Translations under genes and position numbers: made by a program
Shown here: positions 9,627 through 10,441 of the stretch, piece by piece
Layout: each line of letters opens with the position of its first letter
Numbering within the stretch: position 1 is the stretch's first letter
The notes under the pieces: generated by a model
The model's input: only the letters and a program-made list of their open reading frames with translations
The model's database searches: none
Told to the model about the DNA's origin: nothing
Virus record (IMG/VR): IMGVR_UViG_2737471835_000010
Location: 1-17,644 of that record
Reading direction: 5' to 3' (one strand)
DNA from: a virus
Taxonomy: Duplodnaviria > Heunggongvirae > Uroviricota > Caudoviricetes
Length of the DNA stretch: 17,644 nt

Positions 9627-10115
9627 ATGAGTCTGTTAAATGACGTTCAGAAATTCATTGAAGCCCATCCTGGGTGTACTTCCGGAGACATTGCGGATGC
9701 TTTTGCAGGTTACTCACGGCAGCGCGTTCTGCAGTCTGCAAGCAAGTTACGTCAGAGTGGGCGTGTGGCTCACCGTTGTGAAGGAGATACATGCAGACAT
9801 TTCCCGCGCCTGACTGAGAGAGCGCAGGAGCCGGAACCACAACCAGTTCGTGAAACCAGACCTGTGCGCAATTTCTATGTCGGCACTAACGATCCCCGGG
9901 TGATTTTGTGCCTGACCCGCCAGGCTGAAGAACTGGAGTCAAGGGGCTTATACCGTCGTGCTGCAACCGTGTGGATGGCGGCATTCCGTGAAAGCCACTC
10001 CCAGCCAGAACGAAACAATTTTCTGGCGCGTCGTGAGCAGTGCTTACAGAAAAGCAGCAAGCGCGCTGCATCGGGTGAAGAGTGGTATCTGTCAGGGAAT
10101 TACGTGGGGGCGTAA
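9627..10115 (+). CDS. PerC-like transcriptional regulator with N-terminal winged-helix-like segment
   Basis: The ORF track starts at 9495, but ATG at 9627 directly follows the O-like stop. The C-terminal segment AEELESRGLYRRAATVWMAAF...RREQCL matches my recollection of the PerC-family core motif. Confidence 0.5.
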   Translation: MSLLNDVQKFIEAHPGCTSGDIADAFAGYSRQRVLQSASKLRQSGRVAHRCEGDTCRHFPRLTERAQEPEPQPVRETRPVRNFYVGTNDPRVILCLTRQAEELESRGLYRRAATVWMAAFRESHSQPERNNFLARREQCLQKSSKRAASGEEWYLSGNYVGA

Positions 10116-10441
10116 TGACGACGTTAACTCAATGCCAGCAGCAGGTGCTGGATAGGCTGATTTCTTATCAGAAAGAGCGTGGCTTTCCGCCAACCAATCA
10201 GGAGGTGGCAACCATGCTGGGATACCGTTCGGTGAATGCAGCGGTGGAGCATCTTCGCGCACTGGAGAAAAAAGGCGTCATCACGATAAAGCGTGGCGTG
10301 GCACGGGGGATAACGCTTCATACCGCTGTGAAGGACGACGACAGCGAGGCGGTCGGGATTATCCGCGCACTGCTTGCCGGTGAGGAAAACGCCAGGCTGC
10401 GTGCAGCCCACTGGTTACATGAGAGGGGCCTGAAAGTATGA
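10115..10441 (+). CDS. LexA N-terminal DNA-binding-domain homolog lacking the S24 cleavage/dimerisation domain
   Basis: Residues TLTQCQQQVLDRLISYQKERGFPPTNQEVATMLGYRSVNAAVEHLRALEKKGVITIKRGVARGITL align colinearly with the E. coli LexA N-terminal domain at roughly half identity by eye. The protein ends about 40 residues later with no peptidase motifs. The ATG overlaps the upstream TAA. Confidence 0.75.
   Translation: MTTLTQCQQQVLDRLISYQKERGFPPTNQEVATMLGYRSVNAAVEHLRALEKKGVITIKRGVARGITLHTAVKDDDSEAVGIIRALLAGEENARLRAAHWLHERGLKV

Follow-up and report, generated by a model that had tools for sequence, protein, structure and literature searches.

The stretch of DNA analyzed here, called the window below, comprises positions 1 to 17,644 of the IMG/VR virus record IMGVR_UViG_2737471835_000010 (Caudoviricetes) and represents the left half of a lambdoid Escherichia coli prophage. 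Its rightward genes follow the order cro, cII, replication, PerC, LexA-NTD, RusA, KilA-N, DUF968 and Q. The subject of this analysis is the LexA-NTD gene, named for the N-terminal domain (NTD) of LexA, which encodes a 108-residue protein made up of a LexA-type winged helix followed by a short helical tail. The open reading frame (ORF) begins with MTTLTQCQQQVLDRL and ends with HERGLKV (108 codons). An in-frame GTG at 10082 offers a possible earlier start, and both RefSeq and the homologues use the ATG at 10115.

The N-terminal part of the protein was identified by sequence profiles and by structure prediction. Pfam assigns residues 1-65 to LexA_DNA_bind (PF01726) over the complete profile (1-65 of 65, E=1.7e-18, 66.6 bits against a cutoff of 23.7). 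A phmmer search of PDB sequences aligns residues 2-70 colinearly with the E. coli LexA DNA-binding domain (1lea, E=2.4e-15), and identity to E. coli LexA in a MAFFT alignment is 44%. The AlphaFold2 (AF2) model has a mean predicted local distance difference test (pLDDT) score of 77.4 and contains three helices (residues 6-22, 28-35 and 40-52) and a two-strand wing (56-59 and 65-68), followed by a low-confidence linker (71-75). When this model is searched against PDB using Foldseek, the top match is the LexA-DNA complex 3jso, with a root-mean-square deviation (rmsd) of 1.4 Å over 68 columns and 50% identity; the rmsd to 3jso and 1lea ranges from 1.4 to 1.6 Å. A previous reading of the window, made from the letters and their ORFs without database searches (the sequence-only reading), had proposed that the first 70 or so residues are colinear with the E. 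coli LexA winged helix. Pfam, phmmer and Foldseek all bear this out, and every top match in the profile searches is LexA rather than an unrelated winged-helix family.

The same reading had noted that the protein ends about 40 residues later with no S24 peptidase domain, which also holds: 38 residues follow the wing, and the Pfam search yields no Peptidase_S24 match in the 108-residue protein. That search does detect PF00717 in the prophage’s own cI-like repressor, which serves as a control for S24 detection. The NCBIfam equivalog model for LexA (TIGR00498) scores 68.2 bits against a cutoff of 110.95, with only profile positions 1-91 of 203 aligned. The protein is a stand-alone LexA winged helix without the autocleavage domain. 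The lack of an S24 domain and of a conserved cleavage site, together with the sub-threshold score, places it outside the LexA equivalog.

A short segment of the tail resembles the LexA cleavage site and was considered separately. In the E. coli subfamily the HMMER alignment runs to residue 90 and pairs A88-G89 (within ALLAGE) with A84-G85 of LexA (within VAAGE). The counterpart of this motif is ANE, AKE or VGE in close relatives and consists of unrelated residues in relatives at 40-50% identity. The candidate role of ALLAGE as a trans-cleavable site or pseudo-substrate was rejected, since both the Gly and the Ala vary in close relatives and the motif is gone in distant ones; lacking conservation, the segment is not a cleavage site.

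The DNA-contacting surface of LexA is largely retained. According to a passage in PMC13416735 (citing Knegtel 1995), the DNA-contact residues of E. coli LexA are S39, N41, A42, E44 and E45. At these five positions the window protein has S39, N41, A42, V44 and E45, so that four of five are identical. The alignment to LexA at helix 3, which the sequence-only reading had put forward as a check, therefore shows S39, N41, A42 and E45 kept and E44 replaced by V. H46, K53-G54 and the wing motif R64-G65-I66 are also kept. Throughout the family S39 does not vary and N41 hardly does, and a small or hydrophobic residue takes the place of E44. The E. coli subfamily keeps E45, which varies in some distant members, and position 40 is V, A or G instead of P in many members. 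The rigid N8 spacing recognized by LexA has been ascribed to wing-mediated contacts (PMC8565304), and the wing is conserved in the window protein. Recognition of CTGT half-sites by this protein is likely, judging from its residues.

The tail is predicted by AF2 to form a two-helix hairpin, with a block pLDDT of about 86 over the hairpin. Its pattern is conserved in relatives at 40-50% identity. A Foldseek search against PDB gave no structural match for the tail, the winged helix alone being matched. The hairpin is a candidate dimerization module.

The gene is common and is maintained by selection. At 95% identity or above it is present in 2233 of 5426 complete E. coli genomes (41%), and it occurs in 50 phage records, among them SfII, SfIV, SfV, mEp460, cdtI and 15 Shiga toxin (Stx) 2c and 3 Stx2a converting phages; IMG/VR contains at least 565 stretches with the gene. 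Exhaustive HMMER and profile searches recover full-length relatives with both winged helix and hairpin down to about 40% identity. Their hosts are Cronobacter, Enterobacter, Klebsiella, Raoultella, Leclercia, Kosakonia and Salmonella, all of them Enterobacterales. Among 57 distinct alleles taken from 82 copies, the ratio of nonsynonymous to synonymous polymorphism (pN/pS) is 0.044 for the whole gene, 0.012 for codons 1-70 and 0.095 for the tail, and none of these alleles has an internal stop. The low pN/pS, the conserved architecture and the fixed position in the phage map together indicate that the DNA-binding domain and the tail are both maintained by selection.

The family is already annotated and uncharacterized, under names that rest on sequence. 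RefSeq lists the same 327-bp coding sequence in near-identical prophages, with one copy 99.7% identical, as ‘LexA family transcriptional regulator’ (WP_000210154 and relatives). The protein is a full member of PHROG 362 (‘transcriptional repressor’), which it matches over its full length (E=1.3e-58, residues 1-108 against profile positions 1-106 of 106) and from which it differs in no respect. Other names in use are ‘LexA DNA binding domain protein’ and ‘LexA-like protein’, and the family is listed without comment as pham 237 (pfam01726) in 15 Stx phages (PMC8136144). Some records name the 108-residue protein ‘SOS-response repressor and protease LexA’ or ‘RecA-mediated autopeptidases’; these are misannotations, because the protein has no peptidase domain. 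A literature search found no functional study of the enterobacterial family, only catalogue entries.

Features of the window are collected in Table 1. The gene shares overlapping stop and start codons with both of its neighbors, and a consensus scan of the plus strand from 7300 to 10827 finds no promoter-like site. The divergent immunity region is presumably the pR-type source of the early transcript that carries the gene, which would thus be a translationally coupled, delayed-early gene of the rightward operon. If so, it should be silent in the lysogen and expressed after cleavage of the repressor or on infection. In every locus examined the gene lies between the replication genes and DUF968/Q, a position that is conserved in six genera. 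RusA is usually encoded directly downstream, or with one small ORF in between; this synteny is seen in Cronobacter, Enterobacter, Kosakonia and Salmonella loci, and RusA was not seen in the Klebsiella loci L086, L087 and L178.

Table 1. Coordinates of the LexA-NTD gene, its parts and other features of the window.
Feature	Position	Strand	Evidence and remarks
LexA-NTD gene (108 aa)	10115..10441	+	ATG 10115, stop TGA 10439-10441; Pfam, NCBIfam and PHROG matches
LexA-type winged helix-turn-helix, residues 1-70	10115..10324	+	Pfam, AF2, Foldseek
Recognition helix, residues 39-52	10229..10270	+	SVNAAVEHLRALEK versus E. coli LexA SPNAAEEHLKALAR (alignment)
Linker and two-helix hairpin (75-87, 93-103), residues 71-108	10325..10438	+	AF2; replaces S24 domain
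Integrase gene	2276-3262	-	Two large ORFs lie to its left
S24-type cI-like repressor gene	6738-7430	-	PF00717 match
Near-consensus SOS box TACTGTTTTTACATACAGTA	7202-7221		Inside cI-like repressor gene, linker-coding part; 25.8 bits
Divergent immunity control region	7431..7527	+	Between cI-like and cro-like genes; repeated TTGCGC/GCGCAA operator-like motifs
HTH_36 replication protein gene	8683-9624		Downstream of cro-like and cII-like genes
PerC-family gene	9621..10115	+	Pfam PerC, RefSeq; stop overlaps LexA-NTD start (TAATG)
RusA resolvase gene	10438..10827	+	Pfam RusA; ATG overlaps LexA-NTD stop (ATGA)
Antiterminator Q gene	12667-13419		After KilA-N protein and DUF968 genes
N6/N4 DNA methyltransferase gene	14027-15079		Late operon, downstream of Q; small ORF before, lysis genes after
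Near-consensus SOS box TACTGTAAAAATAAACAGTG	14035-14054		Codons 3-9 of methyltransferase gene; 22.7 bits

SOS boxes were scored with a weight matrix derived from 21 known SOS boxes of E. coli, and the scores are approximate. The sequence-only reading had stated that the intergenic DNA of the window holds no canonical CTGT-N8-ACAG box. This is literally correct, and two sites that match CTGT-N8-ACAG exactly, flanked by TA and with spacers rich in A and T, nevertheless lie in coding DNA, one in the repressor gene and one at the head of the methyltransferase gene. Their scores fall among those of the 21 boxes behind the matrix, and on inspection both agree with the textbook consensus, TACTGT-N8-ACAGTA. 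The next-best site in the window reaches at most 9.5 bits, and none of 300 shuffles of the window yields a site of 20 bits or more. When CTGT-Nx-ACAG is counted for x from 0 to 16, enrichment is found at N8 only, with single matches at N11 (10326) and N14 (13555). The stretch from 7222 to 10115 contains no site that reaches 8 bits, so the LexA trait of autoregulation through a box at its own promoter is absent here, and among 81 short-form loci (those encoding proteins like the window protein, without an N-terminal extension) none has an SOS box within 2.5 kb upstream.

Both sites are conserved with the genes that contain them. Among 80 related IMG/VR loci, the 7202-7221 box is present in 20 of 20 copies of the same repressor allele. 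The methyltransferase box is kept wherever the 5′ end of that gene lies within the locus, down to 80% amino acid identity, with changes only in the spacer and flanks. The e14 gene ymfK has no SOS box. Both boxes belong to the repressor and methyltransferase modules, given that they are present in phages without the LexA-NTD gene (described below), and they are most simply read as targets of host LexA. On the minus strand, the 7202-7221 box forms part of a weak-promoter-like arrangement (TTTACC, 17 nucleotides, TACTGT) reading into the 3′ half of the repressor gene; the box could act as a LexA roadblock or as an SOS-controlled internal promoter. The methyltransferase box lies just upstream of the location of stx in Stx phages.

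Two further sites were observed near or within the gene. In the E. coli relatives L026 and L053, an intergenic SOS box (TACTGTATTTATGAACAGTG, 22.6 bits) lies at 10765-10784 between rusA and the next gene, whose product starts with MNQLLVI, similar to the start of the window KilA-N protein. This box suggests a LexA-controlled gene of the antirepressor type. At the same position after rusA the window has a 19-bp gap and no box. The linker codons of the LexA-NTD gene itself hold a palindrome of the form CGCTGT-N11-ACAGCG (10324-10346), its arms 6 bp long, around the CTGT-N11-ACAG match at 10326-10344. It is probably fortuitous, as many relatives have a two-codon deletion there.

A second group of relatives, the long forms, is associated with SOS boxes. 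These proteins carry an N-terminal extension of 20-30 residues, are 118-135 residues in length, and are encoded in Klebsiella, Raoultella, Enterobacter and Salmonella prophages; the Klebsiella long form matches PHROG 362 with E=1.3e-39. In all 34 long-form loci a Rho-independent terminator is followed by a sigma-70-like promoter whose -10 element is overlapped by a near-consensus SOS box (18.5-30.3 bits), sometimes in tandem. The operons then proceed through a PHROG 1813 ORF (75-85 residues, 34 of 34 loci) and the LexA-domain gene to a PHROG 1212 ORF (33 of 34). Ahead of the PHROG 1813 ORF, 20 loci carry a dinI homologue (Pfam DinI, E=1.7e-21) and four carry a full-length recA homologue. A scan of 29 long-form loci (238 kb) placed nearly all strong SOS boxes 0.4-2.3 kb upstream of the gene. 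Both long-form loci that include a repressor gene in the retrieved sequence encode short repressors without an S24 domain. When genome contigs were scanned with the long-form alignment, the matches were mostly host lexA of Vibrionaceae and Alteromonadaceae, together with two relevant loci.

The dinI-type operons are found at L178 (3296-4593), L096, L179-L188, L191-L196, L201 and L202. In the L178 type, the PHROG 1813 ORF has 85 residues and the PHROG 1212 ORF has 67, and some loci carry a second consensus box about 480 bp upstream. The recA type is found in the Klebsiella loci L086/L087 (6446-8393), L176 and L177, where a terminator and the tandem SOS boxes TACTGTTTATTTGTACAGTA and GTATGTATATATAAACAGTT are followed by the gene for a RecA homologue of 361 residues (Pfam RecA_N and RecA_C), the PHROG 1813 ORF and the long-form LexA gene. 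The Salmonella long-form prophage at L092 encodes AcrVA2-like and Cas1-domain proteins between Q and the lysis genes (11794-13390).

This layout has a published precedent. Lemire et al. (2011, PMC3121763) describe LexA-controlled dinI-antirepressor modules in the Gifsy prophages. Downstream of the replication genes, a terminator is followed there by a LexA-box promoter, a dinI homologue and a small ORF. The long-form relatives belong to units of this kind, located at the corresponding point of the phage genome, and because of this match PHROG 1813 is a candidate antirepressor. The Gifsy module as described has no reported LexA-domain gene (PMC3121763). The window gene departs from the Gifsy arrangement in having no adjacent SOS box, dinI or PHROG 1813 ORF, and in that the prophage repressor is of the cleavable S24 type. 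The long-form operons provide a circumstantial tie between the family and the SOS circuit. The long-form protein would be induced by LexA cleavage along with other SOS modulators and, if it binds the box, would be autoregulated in the manner of lexA.

Three other known proteins frame the interpretation. With the DNA-binding domain of E. coli LexA (1lea, 3jso) the window protein shares the fold, 44-50% identity over residues 1-70, and S39, N41, A42, E45, H46 and the RGI of the wing. It differs from LexA in having a 38-residue helical hairpin in place of the S24 peptidase and dimerization domain and V at position 44, and its gene is phage-encoded, lies in an early lytic operon and is not preceded by an SOS box of its own. 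Like the non-cleavable LexA(Ind-) mutants, of which it would be a natural version cut down to the DNA-binding domain, it should not be open to inactivation by RecA-stimulated self-cleavage, judging from its domain content. The third is gp6 of the Bacillus thuringiensis tectivirus GIL01 (Fornelos et al. 2018, PMC6182141). This protein, also a shortened version of LexA, binds GaCACAnnTGTGaC and serves as activator of the late promoter P3. A 14-residue extension of gp6 forms its wing, K38 of its recognition helix is required for site recognition, the protein is made from early lytic transcripts and the late promoter bears LexA boxes (PMC6182141). Both gp6 and the window protein are phage-encoded truncated LexA homologues. 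The window protein differs in its 38-residue helical tail, its LexA-like S/N/A/E recognition residues, its Gram-negative host and its lambdoid phage. The recognition helix SVNAAVEHLRALEK has no Lys before K52/K53 at its end and thus no equivalent of gp6 K38, and the core of the gp6 palindrome, CACANNTGTG, has no match in the window. No tectivirus is among the matches listed from a tblastn search of the protein against 50,697 phage records (E<=1e-3), and gp6 was compared by its published description. The novelty that the sequence-only reading implied for a stand-alone LexA domain is less than suggested, given a widespread annotated family and this tectivirus analogue.

The reading we tentatively favor, at somewhat short of an even chance, makes the protein a surrogate of LexA that cannot be cleaved and that takes over SOS boxes after cleavage of the host repressor. 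Of the two functions suggested by the sequence-only reading, RecA-insensitive occupancy of SOS boxes and binding to a phage-specific variant site, the first gains indirect support from the four retained contact residues, from the strong constraint on the gene and from the long-form operons with their SOS boxes and dinI or recA homologues. The several strong SOS boxes in the window and its relatives also speak for the surrogate. The gene, delayed-early in a pR-type operon, would be expressed only after inactivation of the prophage repressor or on infection; RecA-stimulated cleavage of the S24-type repressor would be the inducing event in a lysogen. Binding to CTGT-N8-ACAG boxes is probable, because the LexA winged helix keeps most of its base-contacting residues, and we infer that the protein most likely binds as a dimer, its two subunits joined through the C-terminal hairpin, through contacts between the wings on DNA, or in both ways. 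Activated RecA would be unable to remove it, since there is no S24 domain. In an SOS-induced cell depleted of host LexA, the protein would then close LexA-controlled promoters again. Candidate targets are the SOS genes of the host, the boxes of the phage itself, and any antirepressor or bacteriocin modules that co-resident elements keep under LexA control. The phage could plausibly benefit from ending costly or harmful SOS functions and from silencing the antirepressors or bacteriocins of co-residents; a further option is that the protein acts on the two boxes of the phage, within the repressor gene and where the late operon begins. The fuller physiological version, in which the surrogate re-closes the SOS regulon after lytic commitment, is SOS-induced and autoregulated in its long forms, and silences both host SOS and the elements of competing residents, we regard as rather unlikely as a whole.

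Several observations weigh against the surrogate reading. E44 is substituted in every family member (by V, A, F, T and others), and some relatives also alter E45 or A42, as in P0172, which has SQNTVFIH in its recognition helix. That divergent helix is encoded behind a perfect SOS box, so the boxes of the long-form operons may be read by host LexA alone. The isolated LexA NTD binds operators more weakly than the dimer does, and dimerization through the tail is a guess from a monomer model with a mean pLDDT of 77. Salmonella phage ST64B has the sequence CACTGTGTTTACATACAGTA at the same position of sb38 (76% nucleotide identity), and the Stx2e phage phiP27 has the box CACTGTAAAAATATCCAGTT in L24; neither phage carries the LexA-NTD gene. 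The short-form loci of Cronobacter, Enterobacter, Kosakonia and Salmonella have no strong box within 8 kb on either side, the best scoring 16.2 bits (L093). With boxes in phages that lack the gene and short-form loci that lack boxes, no phage cis-target co-varies with the gene. Finally, gp6 is an example of a shortened LexA homologue from a phage whose binding site has changed and which works as an activator (PMC6182141).

An unlikely alternative is that a captured LexA domain has acquired altered specificity, so that it recognizes a site peculiar to the phage and switches one of the phage’s promoters on or off while leaving host boxes untouched. The precedent of gp6 binding GaCACAnnTGTGaC and activating P3, the family-wide loss of E44, the V, A or G at position 40 in many members, the lack of a strong box around the short-form loci of the four other genera, and a PHROG annotation that reads merely ‘transcriptional repressor’ would all fit such a regulator. 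The E. coli subfamily nevertheless retains S39, N41, A42, E45 and H46, and the window offers no alternative conserved palindrome, the N8 spacing alone being enriched; the missing gp6 core, the missing K38 equivalent and the absence of tectiviruses from the listed tblastn matches argue against a gp6-like protein as well. A more confined role, in which the protein is a dedicated cis-regulator of the phage’s own boxes that times or locks the lytic program with no meaningful effect on the host regulon, is given a low probability. It would account for the two near-consensus boxes in the cI-like linker and at the late-operon head, it has a parallel in the LexA boxes of the GIL01 late promoter, and in the phage collection 13 of 13 records with the repressor allele (at least 93% identity) and 27 of 27 with the 99% methyltransferase allele carry the gene. 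This co-occurrence is confounded by physical linkage in one mosaic phage lineage, and many loci with the gene have neither box. The window boxes were rejected as dedicated targets of the protein because ST64B and phiP27 keep them without the gene.

A role in protein contact, with the tail or the winged helix binding host LexA, RecA filaments, ClpXP or the phage repressor and thereby modulating SOS or induction, also has a slim chance of being correct. The tail is under constraint and conserved among relatives, and in the E. coli subfamily a weak alignment links it to the cleavage segment of LexA (VGRVAAGE in LexA, IRALLAGE in the window protein). The long forms share operons with homologues of DinI or RecA and with a candidate antirepressor, proteins whose action in each case depends on contacts with other proteins. 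The motif resembling Ala-Gly is however not conserved (AGE, ANE, AKE or VGE in close relatives), the strongest constraint falls on the DNA-binding domain including its recognition helix, and the analysis turned up no evidence for any partner. That the gene is a decaying, functionless remnant of a captured lexA has a negligible probability. The protein does look like a truncated LexA, with TIGR00498 aligning through position 91, yet the pN/pS of 0.044, the intact reading frames of all 57 alleles and the presence of the gene in 41% of complete E. coli genomes speak against decay, as does an architecture retained in no fewer than seven genera, at identities as low as about 40% and with an unchanged genomic position. 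The selection and conservation data effectively refute the remnant explanation.

LexA cleavage is the master switch for the DNA-damage response, mutagenesis, prophage induction and Shiga toxin release. If the surrogate reading is true, a RecA-insensitive LexA domain would be a built-in modifier of this switch, present in a large fraction of the prophages of E. coli, Shigella, Klebsiella and Salmonella. The protein could cut short or dampen the SOS response after induction, decide which co-resident prophage or colicin plasmid fires, and affect antibiotic-induced mutagenesis and Stx production. On the fuller physiological version, the phage would also have the cell to itself, and in polylysogens both the course of the SOS response and the yield of toxin would change. 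If the target is phage-specific instead, the protein would play the part of GIL01 gp6 in a Gram-negative setting. That a prophage has a LexA-domain gene is in itself no surprise; what stands out here is its prevalence, including in Stx phages, the constraint on its sequence, and the SOS-controlled dinI, recA and antirepressor-like operons of its relatives.

Some features elsewhere in the window are recorded for completeness. A PADLOC search gave no meaningful defense-system match. Left of the integrase gene, the ORFs at 1-1053 (which runs off the left end) and 1455-2252 have no Pfam match and may be prophage cargo or flanking genes; this end of the window is unlike that of the proA/thrW-adjacent prophage copy in strain A22. 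Downstream of Q, the region 13440-13585 contains a promoter-like stretch and a strong terminator hairpin that resemble a pR′/tR′ pair. The terminator consists of CCCGCCACTGAGCGGG followed by a T-run (13529-13552), and the CTGT-N14-ACAG palindrome CTGTAAACTTGGTGCAATACAG lies directly after it at 13555-13576.

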